The translations under genes were made by a program, and so were the position numbers. Positions 4,908 through 13,222 of a stretch of 64,000 bases of DNA are shown here, piece by piece (the first letter of the stretch is position 1; each line of letters opens with the position of its first letter). The notes beneath the pieces were generated by a model. It saw only the letters and a program-made list of their open reading frames with translations, did not search any database and had not been told where the DNA came from. Source of the DNA: Anaerolineae bacterium (GTDB taxonomy: Bacteria; Chloroflexota; Anaerolineae; UBA1429); the NCBI GenBank assembly GCA_963675785.1, contig OY776562.1, positions 256,001 to 320,000 of the forward strand, in the 5' to 3' direction.

Positions 4908-6681
<1,774 letters not shown>

Positions 6682-6685
<4 letters not shown>

Positions 6686-6969
6686 ATCCCTGGTTCAAGT
6701 TCTTGCTCTGGATCTTTGTCGGCGGGTTTGCTGGGTTGATGCATCTATATCGCCTAAAGAGCCTGGTGATGCAGTCTGCTGCTTTGTCCGATGAAAAGGC
6801 GCAAAAAAATTTGACACGCTTTGCTCCCTTGCGCATCCTGATGTTCGTTCCCATTTTGCTTGCTGCGGCTTATTCTGGATTGCCTGCCTGCGTTGGTTTT
6901 ATTCTAGGTATGGTATCGGGCAGAGTGGTCGGAGCCTACCTATTCCAGTCGACAACGTCGTTAGACTAG
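6682..6969 (+). CDS. atpR: N-ATPase AtpR-like membrane subunit
   Basis: 95 aa with three hydrophobic segments and intramembrane Arg residues (PLRILM, GMVSGRVV); lies between atpC and atpB. Confidence 0.65.
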
Positions 6970-6988
6970 ATAAAAAGAGAGTACGGTT

Positions 6989-7651
6989 TTGGACAGCGTC
7001 TTCCCACAGCAAGTGCTTGGCTCTTTGCGTGACTCGGTGGTGCACACCTGGGTTATCATCCTAGCTGTTGCTGTGTTCTGCATCATCACCTTTCGCCGGT
7101 ACAGTGCCTTTGAACCGGCTCCGTGGCAGATGTTGGTTGAGCAGCTTGTAGAATATGTAGAGAATCTTGTCACCTCTACATCTGGAAGATCGCTTCCGCA
7201 GGCTACCTGCTTTCTTACAACGATGCTGATTTTTGTGGCTGCGGCGAACATTTTGGGTATGTTCCCGGGATTGAATGCGCCCACTAGGGATTTGAACGTA
7301 ACCCTGGCGCTCTCACTCGTTTCGCTGATAGCCATGTGGGTGTTTGCTATTCGGAAACGGGGGTTAAAAAGCTATCTTAAATCGCTTGTAACACCTGTTT
7401 TCATGTTGCCATTTAACATCTTGTCCATGATTAGCCGTGTTTTATCGATGACGCTCCGTCTTTTTGGCAACATATTTGCTGGGGAAATGGTCGTAGCGGT
7501 TGTGTTCTACATAATGCCGCCGATTGCCCCTCTTCTTTTTACGGTGTTGAGCCTGGTTACATCGATTCTTCAGGCTATGGTATTTACCATTTTGACCTTT
7601 GTGTTCATTGTGGATGCACTGGGTGATGAACCCGAGACAACCAATAGCTAG
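6989..7651 (+). CDS. atpB: F0 subunit a
   Basis: APTRDLNVT and SRVLSMTLRLFGNIFAGE containing the essential Arg. Confidence 0.95.
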   Translation: MDSVFPQQVLGSLRDSVVHTWVIILAVAVFCIITFRRYSAFEPAPWQMLVEQLVEYVENLVTSTSGRSLPQATCFLTTMLIFVAAANILGMFPGLNAPTRDLNVTLALSLVSLIAMWVFAIRKRGLKSYLKSLVTPVFMLPFNILSMISRVLSMTLRLFGNIFAGEMVVAVVFYIMPPIAPLLFTVLSLVTSILQAMVFTILTFVFIVDALGDEPETTNS

Positions 7652-7683
7652 ACTTGGCCTTGTACTGAAAGGAGTTCCAGACG

Positions 7684-7953
7684 ATGGTTTCAGAAAGTCT
7701 TCAATTCGCGACCGTGACAACCATAACAGTTGGTGCAGCAATTGTGCTGGGCACCATCACCGCCTGCATCATGGAAGGTAAGGCGGTCGCCAAGGCCTTT
7801 GACAACATGGCGCGGCAGCCAAGTGTGGCTGACAAAATCCGCGGCTTGCTCTTTGTCTCTATGGCTTTGCTCGAATCGACCGCCATCTATGTTCTGCTCA
7901 TCTGTCTCATTCTGCTGTTTGTGAACCCATTCCAGGGTGCCTTTAACTTTTAG
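7684..7953 (+). CDS. atpE: F0 subunit c with Na+-binding signature
   Basis: ARQP loop; Glu in helix 1 (IMEG) and ESTAIY in helix 2. Confidence 0.95.
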   Translation: MVSESLQFATVTTITVGAAIVLGTITACIMEGKAVAKAFDNMARQPSVADKIRGLLFVSMALLESTAIYVLLICLILLFVNPFQGAFNF

Positions 7954-7964
7954 GAGAGTATTGC

Positions 7965-8750
7965 ATGCTCGATATTGACCTGTCCACATTGCTCTGGGAG
8001 ACGGTCAACTTTTTGGTTCTCTTCCTGCTCTTGTATTTTTTGTTGTTTCGCCCCCTGAAGCGCAAGCTCAATGAGCGCTCTCAGGTCATTGCGAATACGT
8101 TGCAGAGCGCACAGGATCAGGAAGCTGAAGCTAAGCGCATGCGGCTTGAATATGAGGAGCGGCTGCGCAATGCCCAGCAAGAGGCTGATGAGCTTGTGGC
8201 CAATGCCCAGCGCGAGGCGGCCCAAAAGAGCGCTCAACTTGTGCGTGAGGCTCGTGAACGCCTTGACCGCATGACCGAGCAAATGCGCTCTGAATATACA
8301 CGCCAGCGTGAAGAGATTGTCGCGCAAAACTATGAGCGAATACTCGATGTGATCGTTGACTTGTCTGGCAATGTGGTTCAGTCGGTAACGACACGGCGCT
8401 CTCATGACGACCTTGTGCAGAACTTTATGGCTAGTATTTACCAGATGCCCCAGGAAGAAGTCACGACGTACCGCAGAGTGATGATGCAGCGTCAACCACT
8501 CGCAATTGTGACAACCCCCGTTGCGCTGACTGCTGAACAAAGCAAGACTTTGGCAGATACGCTTTCTTCGCTCATCGACCGTCCTGTCGAACTGCAGGTG
8601 CATATCGCGCCCGAACTTGTGGCCGGCATTCAGGTACGCCTGGGTGATCGCCTGATCGATAATTCAGTCCGTCAGCAGATGAATCGAATTCGTGATCGAG
8701 CAAGAAAGGACCTCATAGCAAGTTTTAGCTCAGAGGCCCAAGATGAGTGA
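7965..8750 (+). CDS. atpF: F0 subunit b fused to a delta/OSCP-like C-terminal domain
   Basis: N-terminal TM segment (WETVNFLVLFLLL), coiled coil, then delta-like PELVAGIQVRLGDRLIDNSV. Confidence 0.9.
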   Translation: MLDIDLSTLLWETVNFLVLFLLLYFLLFRPLKRKLNERSQVIANTLQSAQDQEAEAKRMRLEYEERLRNAQQEADELVANAQREAAQKSAQLVREARERLDRMTEQMRSEYTRQREEIVAQNYERILDVIVDLSGNVVQSVTTRRSHDDLVQNFMASIYQMPQEEVTTYRRVMMQRQPLAIVTTPVALTAEQSKTLADTLSSLIDRPVELQVHIAPELVAGIQVRLGDRLIDNSVRQQMNRIRDRARKDLIASFSSEAQDE

Positions 8751-10416
8751 TTCATTTGCTCCACCGCCAGGTGCATCTTTGGATCCTTCTCAGGGAGCTG
8801 TGCGAGATGAGCGGGCACCTACTATTGGCCCCGGGCAGATTACCATTCGTACGCGTCGCAGCCCGCAGGAAGAGTTTCCACGGCCTGTTCTCCAAAAAAT
8901 GGCCCATGCTCCGCAAGAGTCGCTTTCCGCGTTGTTGTCTTCGATTGTGGAGCAAAGCCGTCGTCCTCATCCGGGGTTGTTGGTTCGTGAGATTGGCACT
9001 GTGCGTCAGGTGGGTGATGGTGTTGCTTCGGTCTGGGGACTTCCAGGGGCCACCACTGACGAGATCCTCCAGTTTCCTCATGGTGTAACTGGCCTGGTAA
9101 TGAACCTCGAAACCAGTTACGTAGACTGTATTTTGCTCGGATCTGATGAAGGCATTCAGGGCGGCGATCTCGTCTGGTCGACGGGTAAACGTATCGCCGT
9201 ACCTGTGGGCGATCGCCTTTTGGGGCGTGTTGTCGATCCTTTGGGCACGCCACTAGATACACTTGGTCGCTTGTTTGCCGATGAACTGCGATTCATTGAA
9301 CGGAACGCCCCTGGCGTCGTTGAACGGCAACCGGTTGCCGAGCCGTTGCAGACTGGCATCAAGGCAGTGGATGCGATTGTCCCTATTGGGCGGGGCCAGC
9401 GCGAGCTCATCGTGGGGGATCGACAAACAGGTAAAACGGCCATTGCCCTGGATGCAATCATCAACCAACGGGGGCAGGATGTGGTCTGCATCTATGTCTC
9501 CATCGGGCAACGCAAGTCGGCAGCACTCGATGCTATCCGCATTCTTGATGATGCCGGAGCTATGGAACATACGGTCGTAATTATGGCCGCTCCCGATGAT
9601 CCTCCTGCACTTGTGTACATTGCACCTTATACAGGAGCAACCATCGCCGAATCTTTTATGGATCAAGGCCGCGATGTGCTGATCGTCTACGACGACCTGA
9701 CCAAACATGCTGATGCTTATCGCGAACTCTCGCTCTTGCTTCGCCGCCCACCCGGACGTGAGGCTTATCCCGGCGATATCTTTTATTTGCATTCGCGTTT
9801 GCTGGAGCGTTCGGGCCGTCTGAACGACAGCCTCGGCGGAGGCAGCATTACGGCTTTGCCCATTGTAGAAACGCGGCGCGGCAATATCTCTGCTTATGTA
9901 CCCACCAATCTGATCTCAATTACCGACGGACAGATTTATCTCAGCCCTGAGTTGTTCAATCAGGGGTTCAAGCCGGCTATTGATGTGGGACTTTCTGTTT
10001 CGCGCGTAGGTGGCGCTGCGCAAACGCCGATTATGCGCCAAGTAGGCGGACATTTGCGACTTACGCTCTCACAGTATGAAGAAGTGGCCCAGTTCAGTCG
10101 ATTCGGTACTGAAGTGGACGAGATGACGCGGCGCCAGATTGTACGTGGCGAACACCTTCGTCAGGCACTCAGACAGATTCCTTATACGCCCCTTCAACTC
10201 TCGCGGCAGATTCTGGTGCTCTATGCCGCTGGAGAGGGGTATATGGACGATATTCCTCTTGCGGAGGTGGAACGTTTCGAGAGAGAACTTTGGGCCTTTG
10301 CCATTCGAGAGTATCGCTCTATCGTTCGCCGCGTGGACGAGGATCATGTACTCGATGATCGTTTGACCGGGGATATGAAAGACCTTCTAGAGGCTTTTGT
10401 CAGCAGGTTTGCCTAG
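8743..10416 (+). CDS. atpA: F1 ATPase alpha subunit
   Basis: GDRQTGKT, RRPPGREAYPGDIFYLHSRLLER, GLSVSRVG. Confidence 0.97.
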   Translation: MSDSFAPPPGASLDPSQGAVRDERAPTIGPGQITIRTRRSPQEEFPRPVLQKMAHAPQESLSALLSSIVEQSRRPHPGLLVREIGTVRQVGDGVASVWGLPGATTDEILQFPHGVTGLVMNLETSYVDCILLGSDEGIQGGDLVWSTGKRIAVPVGDRLLGRVVDPLGTPLDTLGRLFADELRFIERNAPGVVERQPVAEPLQTGIKAVDAIVPIGRGQRELIVGDRQTGKTAIALDAIINQRGQDVVCIYVSIGQRKSAALDAIRILDDAGAMEHTVVIMAAPDDPPALVYIAPYTGATIAESFMDQGRDVLIVYDDLTKHADAYRELSLLLRRPPGREAYPGDIFYLHSRLLERSGRLNDSLGGGSITALPIVETRRGNISAYVPTNLISITDGQIYLSPELFNQGFKPAIDVGLSVSRVGGAAQTPIMRQVGGHLRLTLSQYEEVAQFSRFGTEVDEMTRRQIVRGEHLRQALRQIPYTPLQLSRQILVLYAAGEGYMDDIPLAEVERFERELWAFAIREYRSIVRRVDEDHVLDDRLTGDMKDLLEAFVSRFA

Positions 10417-11316
10417 ATGGAAGACATCGAACGCATCAAGGAACGCCTCGATAACATCCGCAGTGTAGAACCCATCATTACTTCTCTGCGGACGATTTCG
10501 GCCGGTGCTTGGCGGCAGGCGTTGCGTCGACGCGAGGCTACGGGCATGTACCTTGAAAATCTCTCAGCAACACTAGGGGGCTTGCTCTCGGGCGTGTCGG
10601 CCGAGTTGATTCATAACAAAGGTGTGGTGGATTCCCTTAGCTCCCCCCAGCGTGTGATCATGTTGGTTATTGCTTCAGAGCGAGGGCTGTGTGGCGCCTT
10701 TAATGATGTCATTCTCGATGGTGCACTCAATTTACTTCAGCAACAGCGCATGGTCAGTGACCAAGTGCAGGTTATTACGATAGGAGAACGCGCGCGTCTT
10801 TGCGTTTCTACGCATTACGAGCTGCTTGACCATATCTCTCTCCCCATGACCCGCGTTGTTCCTTTTTCTGCCGTACGCGATCTAGCACTTGATCTCCAAA
10901 ACCAAGTTTTCTCGGGGCAAGTTGATGCTGTCTACACTATCTCGACAGACTATGCTTCTACTGAGGTATTACCTCCCAAAGCTCGTGTCTGGCTTCCTGT
11001 CGAACGTGACGCCCTGGATATCAGCTTCGAGGCCTGGCCTCCCCCGATTGTGGAAGGTGACCGCGAACGGCTCGTTGCCCATACCCTTGAAGAAGTAGCG
11101 CTGCTGCGTCTCTATCGTGCTTTTATCGAATCGGCAGCTGCCGAGCAGGCGGCGCGGTTCCGTGCTATGGAAGCGGCTAGCACGAACCTCGTCCGACTCA
11201 TTGAAGAATTAACGCTTACATACCATACGGCCAGACAGCAGGCTATTACGACTGAGATGATCGAATTAGCCACTTCTGCCGGTTTACTGCGCGATACAGG
11301 TGAGAATAGTAGGTAG
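10417..11316 (+). CDS. atpG: F1 ATPase gamma subunit
   Basis: SERGLCGAFN, EQAARFRAMEAA, RQQAITTEMIE. Confidence 0.95.
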   Translation: MEDIERIKERLDNIRSVEPIITSLRTISAGAWRQALRRREATGMYLENLSATLGGLLSGVSAELIHNKGVVDSLSSPQRVIMLVIASERGLCGAFNDVILDGALNLLQQQRMVSDQVQVITIGERARLCVSTHYELLDHISLPMTRVVPFSAVRDLALDLQNQVFSGQVDAVYTISTDYASTEVLPPKARVWLPVERDALDISFEAWPPPIVEGDRERLVAHTLEEVALLRLYRAFIESAAAEQAARFRAMEAASTNLVRLIEELTLTYHTARQQAITTEMIELATSAGLLRDTGENSR

Positions 11317-11327
11317 AAATCGAATAG

Positions 11328-11355
11328 TTGCACCAACGGATAGATGTGCTACACT
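11328..11355 (+). promoter_or_regulatory. Putative sigma70-type promoter for the leader/VIT1 operon
   Basis: TTGCAC-N16-TACACT with an extended -10 TG at 11347-11348. Confidence 0.5.
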
Positions 11356-11392
11356 ACGATTGATAGGTATGTGAAGGAGTGTGCTGAGCTTT

Positions 11393-11638
11393 ATGTTGGA
11401 ACGTGAACCCGATCCTGACCCTTTGAGTCCCGAGCCTCCGAGTACTTTGGCGGGTGCTGAATCCGCCAAACTCCAAACCAGAGCTTTTTCAGACGCTCTA
11501 TTTGTCCCCGATTATTCATTCGAGAAGGCAAATGCTCACCTTCGGGCTAGTGTTCGTACACTGGTCAGATTTGAGGTTGTCTTCAGCCGTTTTCTCTCTC
11601 TGTTCTTTCCTACACTACTCATCGCTCGCCGTGTGTGA
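11393..11638 (+). CDS. Putative proline-rich leader peptide (uORF)
   Basis: AAGGAG at 11374-11379; reads MLEREPDPDPLSPEPP..., with 6 Pro and 5 acidic residues in the first 16 codons. SD spacing is long (13 nt). Confidence 0.45.
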   Translation: MLEREPDPDPLSPEPPSTLAGAESAKLQTRAFSDALFVPDYSFEKANAHLRASVRTLVRFEVVFSRFLSLFFPTLLIARRV

Positions 11639-11684
11639 ATTTTATCTGGCGAATAGATGAATTGAGGTAGAGTGGGAGAGAATA

Positions 11685-12281
11685 ATGAGTACTAGATCTG
11701 ATCAGTTGCAAAAAAGAGTCGATGAATATCGCGAGATTTCGCGTGTAGATACAGTTGGCCGCCGTGTTTTCGCGACCAGCGCCTTTGACGGCATCCTGAC
11801 GATGTTGGGTGTTGTCATGGGTTCGTTTGTTGCCAATGTCAATGATCCGCGGATCATTTTGGCCACCGGATTTTCAACAGGTTTGGCCATGGGTATTTCG
11901 GGCCTATGGGGTTCTTATATGACCGAAACCGCCGAGCGTAAGCACGAGATTCACGAACTCGAGCGTGCCATGTTGACAGATATGAAGGATACGCGACATA
12001 GCCGCGCCTCTCAGTTCGCTGTGCTTTCTCTGGCTGCGCTTGATGGGCTTTCACCGCTGTTGGCTGGTGCTGTTGTATTGATCCCCTTCTTCTTTACCAG
12101 TTTATTGAGCAGCATCACCACGGCCTATATCATTGCCCTGGCTGTAGCTCTGGTAGCCCTCTTTGGGTTGGGGGTTTTTCTTGCCCGCATTTCGCGTGAC
12201 AACATTCTCAAATCAGGTGTGCAAATGATCGTAGCCGGTATTGTCTGTGTTGTGATGAGCTTTTTCTTGGGGTCTATCTAA
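11685..12281 (+). CDS. VIT1/CCC1 (TIGR00267-like) divalent metal transporter family protein
   Basis: AFDGILTMLG, LAMGISGLWGSYMTETAER, five hydrophobic helices. Confidence 0.85.
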   Translation: MSTRSDQLQKRVDEYREISRVDTVGRRVFATSAFDGILTMLGVVMGSFVANVNDPRIILATGFSTGLAMGISGLWGSYMTETAERKHEIHELERAMLTDMKDTRHSRASQFAVLSLAALDGLSPLLAGAVVLIPFFFTSLLSSITTAYIIALAVALVALFGLGVFLARISRDNILKSGVQMIVAGIVCVVMSFFLGSI

Positions 12282-13222
12282 TGCAGTCGATCGCTACCAT
12301 TTGGAATCGCGTCATACTTTTGGTGGCTGGATTCATTATTGGTTGGAACCTCTCCAATTATTGGACAGCTGCGCCTGAGCAAATTTCGCATCAGCGAAAC
12401 CGCCTCTGGATGGGGGCGGTTCTTGGGTTGGCGATGTTGGTTTGGCTTGCCGTCGATGAACCCGCTACTGCCATGTTTGGCCTCTTGATCGTGCTGTTTA
12501 CGGCTTTTGTGGCCTACATGGGCAGCGCCAGAGAAGCCAGTGGCACGCCTGAGCCCTGGCCACGTCCACGGCCGTTACGTAAATCCACTTTGCAGGATAA
12601 GGTTCTCGTTGTGTTAGTCTCTTTTGGCGAGCCGGCGAGTTATGATGGCCCTGCGCCCTGGGCTTGGCAGTTGGCCTGGCTTGCCCGCCTTGGAGAAAAG
12701 GTGCCCTCTTGGTTTTCACGCCCGCGTACGTACGCGCGCATCCGCAAAGGGGTTATGGCGAGCGGAGTGCAGGGGAGTTTAGATTCCTGGGTGAGTGGGC
12801 TTCAGGAGGCACTTGCAGAGAGTCTGAACGGCAGTTTTGCCTGTATCAAAGGCTACGAGTTTGTCAAACCAGGACTAGCTAGTACATTGGCACATGCCGC
12901 CGAAGATGGCTATACTCGCTTTATTCTGGTTCCTTTGGGACCGATAGATGAGGCGGCGGTTTCTGCTGCCGTCAAGCAATCTCGCATCAAAGAAGTTGGT
13001 GTTCAGGTTGTGGTCATGCAGCCCGAGCAGCCTTTGGGCTGGGATCAAGCTTTTGCTGTTGAGCGATTGCAACTGTTGATGAGTGGTCGGCCAGCCCAAG
13101 CCCCGGCAGTGGCGCCGCAAGAGTATTCAAAAAGTCTGGATGAACTAATTAGAACTGAGGCGTTTCGAAAGGGTTGGGACGCGCAAGTGGAGCCAGTAGC
13201 TTTTAATACAGAACTGCGCTGA
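12281..13222 (+). CDS. Membrane-anchored protein with a chelatase-like (ferrochelatase N-domain-like) soluble domain
   Basis: Three N-terminal TM segments, then VLVVLVSFGEP...YARI...FVKPGL...GYTRFILVPL. TAATG overlap with the upstream gene. Confidence 0.5.
   Translation: MQSIATIWNRVILLVAGFIIGWNLSNYWTAAPEQISHQRNRLWMGAVLGLAMLVWLAVDEPATAMFGLLIVLFTAFVAYMGSAREASGTPEPWPRPRPLRKSTLQDKVLVVLVSFGEPASYDGPAPWAWQLAWLARLGEKVPSWFSRPRTYARIRKGVMASGVQGSLDSWVSGLQEALAESLNGSFACIKGYEFVKPGLASTLAHAAEDGYTRFILVPLGPIDEAAVSAAVKQSRIKEVGVQVVVMQPEQPLGWDQAFAVERLQLLMSGRPAQAPAVAPQEYSKSLDELIRTEAFRKGWDAQVEPVAFNTELR

Follow-up and report, generated by a model that had tools for sequence, protein, structure and literature searches.

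The stretch of DNA analysed here, 64,000 nucleotides (nt) of contig OY776562.1 from an Anaerolineae bacterium and called the window throughout, has on its + strand a gap of 368 nt between the gene for an ATP-synthase gamma subunit (10417-11316) and a gene of the VIT1 family of transporters (11685-12281). It is in this gap, at 11328-11684, that we describe a short upstream open reading frame (ORF) with signals and RNA structures of its own. An earlier note on the same DNA had seen there a promoter, a Shine-Dalgarno (SD) sequence and an upstream ORF, and had read the segment as a candidate metal-sensing leader like MgtL, the leader peptide of the enterobacterial mgtA gene; all three elements are present, and a leader ORF with its own signals is conserved upstream of VIT1 orthologues. 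The features of the leader and of the gene behind it are as follows.

11328-11355, + strand: promoter-like site, with TTGCAC at 11328-11333, a 16-nt spacer and an extended -10 element, TGcTACACT, at 11347-11355
11374-11379, + strand: SD sequence of the leader ORF, AAGGAG, 13 nt before the ATG at 11393
11393-11638, + strand: leader ORF of 81 codons and a TGA (11636-11638), starting MLEREPDPDPLSPEPP / MLEREPDPDPLSPEPPST
11399-11446, + strand: N-terminal motif rich in aspartate, glutamate and proline (D/E/P), codons 3-18, EREPDPDPLSPEPPST
11446-11470, + strand: hairpin P1, in which TTTGGCGG (11446-11453) pairs with CCGCCAAA (11463-11470)
11685-12281, + strand: VIT1-family transporter gene, 198 amino acids, PF01988, presumed to be under the control of the leader

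The identity of the transporter gene, given in the earlier note as VIT1/TIGR00267, holds for the broader family and falls short for the narrower one: its product scores 69 bits against PF01988, well past the Pfam gathering threshold of 28.1, and 113.9 bits against TIGR00267, which makes it a relative under the curated NCBIfam cut-off of 156.95. Proteins of the VIT family, as known from plant, yeast and parasite members, carry Fe2+ and Mn2+ out of the cytosol.

The product of the leader was a poor guide to its relatives: a tblastn search with its 81 residues against 40 related genomes gave nothing under E 0.02, and a scan of genome contigs with a single protein gave no match, aligned sequences being needed for that purpose. 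VIT1 orthologues, with 46-63% identity, were found in 15 of the 40 genomes, and it was in the sequence ahead of them that a shared upstream ORF came to light. A VIT1 profile scan, with one genome per species, reached 247 relatives, and the best 80 of these 247 loci, almost all from metagenome-assembled genomes (MAGs) of Anaerolineae or other Chloroflexota, were analysed. The leader is carried by 18 of the 80, in 15 cases recognised by pattern and in three (L052, L060 and L063) by reading the upstream sequence, while 58 have no leader and, directly upstream of VIT1, a gene of about 100 codons that we take to resemble DUF211. Neither is present in L075 and L078, L108 ends early, and the contig of L051 ends 85 nt upstream of VIT1, its leader being found on a second contig (L122) from that assembly. 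The VIT1 proteins linked to a leader, 20 with that of the window, were placed on one side of a branch by a quick maximum-likelihood tree, and this branch has a value of 95 in the Shimodaira-Hasegawa-like approximate likelihood-ratio test (SH-aLRT).

Scans with a leader profile were built on a 10-row alignment of the majority type of leader (type 1, described below), so that other leader types beside other genes could escape them. Of 36 pattern matches in genomes, 7 were confirmed, and each came from a genome in which the leader had been seen before; among metagenomes, 15 of 158 were confirmed, with VIT1 next in 14 and the fifteenth contig ending 60 nt past the leader, and these type-1 scans of genomes and metagenomes gave no copy away from a VIT1 context. 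A search of the window's own genome with a narrow regular expression for the motif matched the leader itself and nothing else. The leaders compared below are 30 distinct sequences in total, 27 collected first and 3 more by upstream reading. Judged from these comparisons, a leader of the same build precedes each of the VIT1 orthologues in one Anaerolineae subclade, and its features are kept across a divergence of VIT1 to about 50% identity.

The signals for starting the leader are conserved in an unusual form. The promoter-like site of the window fails a consensus scan, with only 3 of 6 matches at the -35; its extended -10 is as far from the start codon as TGnTATAAT is in the relatives, and an extended -10 (TGnTAnMnT) lies 36-44 nt 5' of the start codon in 25 of the 30 leaders, the other five being one without upstream sequence and four with TATAAT-like hexamers that lack the TG. 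GGAG is found in all 30 leaders and stands 11-14 nt ahead of the start in 29. In the window's own genome the spacing of AGGAG peaks at 6 nt and is usually 5-9 nt, with 13 nt in 2 of 404 genes, and since this usual spacing is shorter, the 11-14 nt of the leaders is a conserved oddity. The start codon is ATG in 28 leaders and GTG in 2, the ORF runs for 81 codons in the window and 50-76 in the relatives, and from the leader TGA to the VIT1 ATG (11685) there are 46 nt in the window and 46-145 nt across the leaders. All 30 leaders keep frame 0 open through their first 150 nt, whereas 5 do so for frame +1 and 1 for frame +2. The ORF matches no Pfam or NCBIfam family and gives no fold signal. In one subclade the VIT1 gene itself also has GGGAG 12 nt ahead of its ATG.

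The beginning of the leader peptide comes in three types, all of them rich in Asp, Glu, Pro, Ser and Thr. The majority of leaders begin MFETE[SP]S[DE]P[PSA]STP.DQR (type 1); L046 and L052 begin VT(TT)EPSEPSSP[DE]PDQP (type 2), and L056, L060 and L063 begin MSEPD[PS]SD (type 3). The window's N-terminus is type 1 (MFETE[SP]S[DE]P[PSA]ST) with six extra in-frame codons (DPDPLS), an insertion of 18 nt. Its richest run of ten residues holds 8 D/E/P, in a genome whose 1651 N-termini have a mean of 2.25, with at least 6 in 0.8% of them and at least 7 in none; likewise, at least 5 D/E/P per 10 residues are found in 26 of the 30 leaders, compared with 4.2% of those N-termini. According to part of a published account, intrinsic ribosome destabilisation is to be expected from more than 3 D/E/P in 10 residues within the first 20-30 residues (10.1101/2021.02.02.429294), and all 30 leaders have more than that. 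The earlier note had looked to an alignment of orthologues for a conserved EPDP motif and a covarying hairpin. What such an alignment upholds is the D/E/P-rich N-terminus, in 30 of 30, and a hairpin at a fixed distance with covariation, as set out below; the literal EPDP is confined to the window (residues 5-8), L056 and L060 (residues 3-6) and, in degenerate form, L063, and is absent from 25 leaders of types 1 and 2. The Pro-Pro codons are not conserved either: residue 10 is P in 13 of 25 leaders, S in 7 and A in 5.

Two regimes of conservation adjoin within this N-terminal part. Over codons 2-10 of 25 aligned leaders the summed entropy is 12.7 at third positions and 2.6 at second, and the second position of codons 5-10 is invariant; by this measure, codons 2-10 evolve like coding sequence. 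Codons 11-17 (AGT ACC CCC GAY GAC CAA CGT) are almost fixed at all three positions in type 1, and because of this near-fixation we see there a constraint at the level of RNA: AGT is present in 25 of 25 leaders, never AGC or TCN (the window's equivalent is at 11441-11446), and CAA in each of the 22 leaders whose peptide has Gln there. For the fixed AGT ACC CCC GAY, which precedes the P1 arm on its 5' side, no pairing partner or other cause was found. At ACC CCC GAC a frameshift site (-1 or +1) was weighed as a candidate and rejected, there being no slippery heptamer and the sequence being absent from the window.

One could suppose that the open frame is incidental and that the element is RNA only, in the manner of a riboswitch, for AGTACCCCCGAYGACCAACG is kept nucleotide by nucleotide and RNA structure extends throughout. 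That supposition is extremely improbable given codon-type variation in codons 2-10, a start codon and SD that are both conserved, a frame that is open in every leader and indels that come in multiples of three; moreover, an Rfam search of 10800-12200 gave no family match at E up to 10, the Mg-sensor included. As we read the sequences, the leader ORF is translated and its RNA is structured, and neither property alone accounts for the pattern. That the pattern is beyond chance appears mainly from its conservation in relatives and less from the window alone, and on this comparative footing the element is probably a conserved translated regulatory leader.

The hairpin P1 comes at a fixed distance behind the D/E/P-rich codons. 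As in the earlier note, it is an 8-bp hairpin at 11446-11470 that starts 5 nt past the Pro-Pro codons (11435-11440); with -17.7 kcal/mol it has a z of -3.64, and none of 200 shuffles is equally stable. Across the leaders the 5' arm starts 5-12 nt after the conserved AGT. In type 1 the pairing is of GACCAACG with CGTTGGTC, and in its flanks four columns show two to five pair types, for example G-C, C-G, U-A and A-U at one column, while in the window, type 2, type 3, L040 and L088 the same place is taken by a hairpin of unrelated sequence. The position is occupied by a hairpin in about 18 of 20 folded leaders (not in L056, and weakly in L044), with a z of -2 or lower in 11 of the 20. Runs of MAFFT and RNAalifold on all leaders and on one subclade left the variable loops unaligned and gave next to no covariation term (-0.87), and the structure from these runs is not used as evidence. 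The consensus fold of the subclade would pair the leader SD with CCUCC in codons 9-10, an arrangement that is not conserved beyond the subclade and the window.

The 3' part of the leader ORF contains a tract whose sequence is complementary to the ribosome-binding site (RBS) of the VIT1 gene.

11581-11630, + strand: pyrimidine-rich, G-poor tract of 20 C, 5 G, 20 T and 5 A in the 3' part of the leader ORF
11600-11622, + strand: 5' arm of the anti-RBS pairing, within the leader ORF and ending 14 nt before its stop
11662-11685, + strand: 3' arm of the anti-RBS pairing, namely the VIT1 RBS, with GGGAGAG at 11674-11680, through the A of the ATG

The duplex between 11600-11622 and 11662-11685 is worth -24.9 kcal/mol. 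Among 1369 natural RBS regions of the same genome, 5 pair with the leader tail as well as its own site does in a short version of this comparison and 7 in a long one. The fold of 11590-11700 (111 nt) has a z of -4.39, reached by none of 200 shuffles, and the masking helix is found in the minimum-free-energy (MFE) and centroid structures of both this segment and the whole leader (339 nt). Most relatives have on this strand a second conserved block, with the consensus TTCCCACTCAAGTAYCC, which reads FPLK[YFH]P; 21 of 27 leaders have it, all 21 in the leader frame, and it stands at 84, 90, 93, 102 or 105 nt from AGT, five distances each of which is a multiple of 3. At the VIT1 SD of the relatives an element like TTGAGTGGGAA recurs, and the consensus of block 2 is the reverse complement of this element. 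When block 2 was set against the VIT1 site of its own locus and 500 natural sites, the own site ranked among the best 5% for 8 of 18 relatives; for 6 more it came within 13%, and for 4 it failed. MFE folds of whole leaders show pairing between the leader ORF and the VIT1 SD in 18 of 23, as against 45.5% of 200 control genes. The in-frame variation of block 2 at third positions in relatives leaves space for a role of the peptide as well, which it may have. Intrinsic terminators, taken as a hairpin with a T-run, were found in 6 of 27 leaders at differing places; none is conserved, and there is no alternative-antiterminator design. At 11575-11600 in the window, in the leader ORF just 5' of the anti-RBS arm, there is a weak terminator-like hairpin of 5 bp followed by GTTTTCTCTC, which is not conserved.

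Data from sequencing runs touch on the same part of the leader. Six runs carry the stretch as DNA-type contigs, and two RNA-type runs have short contigs only, 11579-11807 and 11938-12247, so that missing cover elsewhere carries no weight. The former is a metatranscriptome contig of 229 nt from a close relative, in which the leader tail, the spacer and the start of VIT1 are in one piece, and it is compatible with co-transcription of the leader and VIT1. The three differences listed for it keep the predicted features: 11637 G>A turns TGA into TAA, and 11617 A>G leaves a G-U where the masking helix had A-U.

The same tract invites a reading through transcription termination, since the earlier note, whose count of 20 C and 5 G at 11581-11630 is right, took it for a rut-like site. 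Under Rho-dependent attenuation, the position of the ribosome on the N-terminal codons and P1 would decide whether Rho loads on the C-rich, G-poor RNA and ends transcription ahead of VIT1, much as in the logic known for mgtA from part of a published account (PMC11282234). C does exceed G after P1 in most of 27 leaders, the 60-nt stretch in question starting about 70-95 nt past the start codon; a rho gene is encoded, and no conserved intrinsic terminator is there to serve instead. However, an excess of at least 15 C over G per 60 nt turns up in 11.7% of random segments of the same genome, and the tract is translated as part of the leader ORF, and the fold predicts it to be paired. Its complementarity to the VIT1 RBS itself explains the composition, so that the tract is better taken as the strand that pairs with this site; a weak point in the same direction is that the RNA-library contig continues from it into VIT1. 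Rho attenuation is in our view unlikely, and it may combine with masking.

A product of 50-81 residues might also act in trans as a small protein, for instance as a partner or modulator of VIT1 or of the chelatase-like membrane protein encoded behind it (described below). Small proteins that act on metal transporters are known, MntS and MgtS among them, and here the two blocks are conserved as peptide and in frame, and the association with the same two genes is constant. What makes this improbable is that protein conservation is missing from the middle third, where the hairpin arms dictate the residues, that codons 11-17 are held constant as nucleotides (with AGT in 25 of 25 and CAA for every one of the 22 Gln), that the window is without block 2 yet has the RNA pairing, and that there is no family or fold signal. 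A precursor of a ribosomally synthesised and post-translationally modified peptide, which would also have a conserved N-terminus and a variable rest, was considered and rejected: no modifying enzyme lies nearby, and the variable part is shaped by the hairpin arms.

Taking sequence, folds and conservation together, we lean towards 11328-11684 being a translated cis-acting leader that sets the expression of the operon of VIT1 and the gene for a 313-residue protein by the travel of ribosomes along the ORF. In the mechanism that we propose, the VIT1 RBS would be locked in the long helix, and VIT1 poorly translated, whenever the 3' part of the leader ORF is free of ribosomes, whereas ribosomes that reach the end of the ORF would melt the helix and open the RBS. 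We hold this unmasking of the VIT1 RBS as the output tentatively, at close to an even chance. The acidic and proline-rich N-terminal peptide would act as a gate, where ribosomes pause or drop off before the nascent chain is long enough to fill the tunnel, so that the number of ribosomes reaching the end of the ORF would be set at its N-terminus. When the Pro codons occupy the P-site, the mRNA entrance, about 11 nt downstream, would be at the foot of P1 and the nascent chain would be 10-16 residues long, a geometry that fits the proposal of the earlier note that a stalled ribosome covers the 5' arm of the hairpin.

According to parts of two published accounts, D/E/P-rich sequences destabilise the ribosome only while the exit tunnel is unfilled, and the EPDP of MgtL causes a drop-off that low Mg2+ enhances and the ABCF protein EttA counteracts (10.1101/2021.02.02.429294; PMC11282234). 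By analogy, drop-off at the D/E/P block could be the sensor of the present leader, which we regard as doubtful. Conditions that stabilise ribosomes, such as high divalent cations or the ABCF and energy state, would then turn the exporter on, and the predicted sign of control is that stable ribosomes give full translation of the leader, hence an open RBS and hence expression of the exporter; by this chain of steps the leader would sense metal.

Two further readings differ from this leader mechanism in what is sensed. In the more modest one there is no sensing at all, and the ORF merely couples translation or stabilises the mRNA, raising or fixing the output of VIT1; the masking helix predicts coupling with or without a signal, and yet the D/E/P start, the hairpin at a fixed distance and the SD spacing of 11-14 nt, all kept to about 50% identity of VIT1, would go unexplained, which leaves a constitutive leader quite improbable. 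In the bolder one, the leader would be a two-part nascent-peptide sensor of a novel kind, a metal-tuned arrest peptide for an Fe/Mn exporter of Chloroflexota, the peptide being made of the N-terminal acidic/Pro/Ser block and a pause at PLK[YFH]P. The N-terminal block would respond to Fe2+, Mn2+ or Mg2+, ions of which these anaerobes have plenty, through the stability of the ribosome or by direct contact at the tunnel exit, and the pause would come 28-35 codons later, about one exit-tunnel length, on the very strand that masks the RBS. Such a sensor is decidedly unlikely; if true, it would mean that ribosome destabilisation of the MgtL kind is used for sensing far outside Proteobacteria.

Several observations weigh against the leader mechanism that we favour. 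A coarser test of masking is significant in only 5 of 23 leaders, a test of the duplex with mononucleotide shuffles, itself weak, in 7 of 23, and in about half of the relatives masking is not significant; part of the pairing is accounted for by composition, a pyrimidine-rich strand facing a purine-rich one. The window is without the PLK[YFH]P block, reading LFFPTLL at that place with the RNA pairing retained, and because the peptide block was lost there and the pairing kept, the RNA strand would be the more basic feature of the two. As for P1, its core pairs are invariant and give no covariation signal, and in 9 of the 20 folded leaders its stability does not exceed that of shuffles. The unusual SD spacing of 11-14 nt could mean weak initiation. 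The leader ORF is three to five times longer than that of MgtL, with 50-81 codons as compared with 17. The leaders are kin, and the counts given above overstate the independent support for that reason. Finally, the contig of 229 nt is the sole RNA evidence, and it could be contaminating DNA.

The likeness to MgtL from which the earlier note set out stands for the acidic and proline-rich N-terminus and not for the architecture. In both cases a leader ORF has such an N-terminus, with a true EPDP at residues 5-8 in the window, an RNA structure begins right after the acidic and Pro codons, and a cation transporter lies downstream. In the present leaders, however, the motif starts from residue 3-5 and includes Ser and Thr, most members have the second in-frame block, the predicted output is unmasking of an RBS and not a Rho switch, and the phylum is a different one. 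The gene behind MgtL, mgtA, is a Mg2+ importer, and the one here belongs to the VIT family (PF01988); because a target of that family is of the export type, the sign of control would be opposite to that of mgtA. There is no detectable homology to MgtL, the peptides being too short for a homology statistic, and no Rfam Mg-sensor match. On the sequences compared, the resemblance is functional only, and membership of one family is unsupported.

Other known systems share single properties with the leader. Leaders of the arrest-peptide class, SecM of secA, MifM of yidC2 and VemP of secDF2, have a 3' part that pairs with the SD of the next gene. The present leader resembles them in that the 3' part of its ORF is predicted to pair with the next SD, which a seated ribosome would open, and in having a conserved C-proximal block, PLK[YFH]P, on that strand; it differs in being without an N-terminal signal or membrane segment and acidic there instead, and PLK[YFH]P is only a putative arrest motif, absent in the window. 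Going by these features of the sequence, the leader belongs to neither the MgtL class nor that of SecM and MifM. For ybeX/corC of E. coli, a gene of cation efflux, it has been proposed in part of the account cited above that a D/E/P start raises expression when Mg2+ stabilises ribosomes (10.1101/2021.02.02.429294). The proposed sign of control is the same as here, and a gene of the CNNM/CorC type stands behind the leader in two metagenome contigs (L128 and L129), whereas the motif of ybeX/corC is within the regulated protein and that of the leader belongs to an upstream ORF of its own, accompanied by a hairpin and an anti-RBS strand. The yybP-ykoY Mn2+ riboswitch of mntP and alx, as described in part of the literature on it, is likewise a cis-acting 5' leader that turns on a metal exporter; it is an RNA aptamer that needs no translated ORF, and Rfam gave no match to it here.

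In the open-access literature we found no leader peptide described for a gene of the VIT family or for Chloroflexota, and no paper on TIGR00267. To our knowledge, leader peptides that use the ribosome as a sensor of ions or energy have so far been confined to a handful of enterobacterial genes. The leader described here shares their peptide chemistry and has persisted across deep divergence within a lineage of uncultured Chloroflexota. Its architecture is different, with a long ORF, a hairpin and a strand that would mask an RBS, and it precedes a different class of transporter, one for which the open-access literature searched describes no regulator. Being compact, at about 360 nt, it also makes a convenient construct with which to ask whether ribosome destabilisation is a general means of cation sensing, and it offers a handle on the function of an unstudied pair, VIT1 and the chelatase-like membrane protein, the gene for which is the next feature of the operon.

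12281-13222, + strand: second gene of the operon, 313 amino acids, its start overlapping the VIT1 stop by 1 nt

The AlphaFold model of this protein (predicted local distance difference test, pLDDT, 85.8) has three N-terminal membrane helices followed by an alpha/beta domain. The top structural matches of the domain are ferrochelatase/CpfC and CbiX, at E of about 1e-3 to 3e-2 over some 150 aligned columns, which are weak, and against the Pfam ferrochelatase family the protein has an E of 0.0086, under the threshold, so that the model suggests a chelatase-like domain only weakly. A homologue follows VIT1 in 13 of the 15 scored leader loci and in none of the 58 loci of the DUF211 type. The ATP-synthase gamma gene is upstream in 10 of the 15 scored leader loci. 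In the metagenome contigs L128 (461-1964) and L129 a CNNM/CBS/CorC_HlyC gene (458 amino acids, PF01595, E 2.5e-45) has come to lie between the intact leader and VIT1; the insert also holds an ORF of 52 codons, and it sits behind the leader and an RBS and ATG of the VIT1 type. A search of the window's own genome for CNNM gave no match. The CNNM/CorC insertion and the chelatase-like 313-residue protein fit a theme of divalent cations.

Some smaller observations on the surroundings may be added. The DUF211-like gene of about 100 amino acids that precedes the leaderless VIT1 genes ends 15-120 nt ahead of VIT1, in 58 of the 80 loci, among them L049, L053 and two archaeal MAGs. A strain variant (run X6) has 0 differences from the window in 11328-12001 and 22 in the remaining 1127 nt of 10900-12700. 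The ATP-synthase operon at 4911-11316 has the gene order beta, epsilon, small ORF, a, c, b, alpha, gamma, which we take to be that of alternative (N-type) ATPase operons, and its gamma subunit scores far under the cut-off of the 'alternate F1F0' model.

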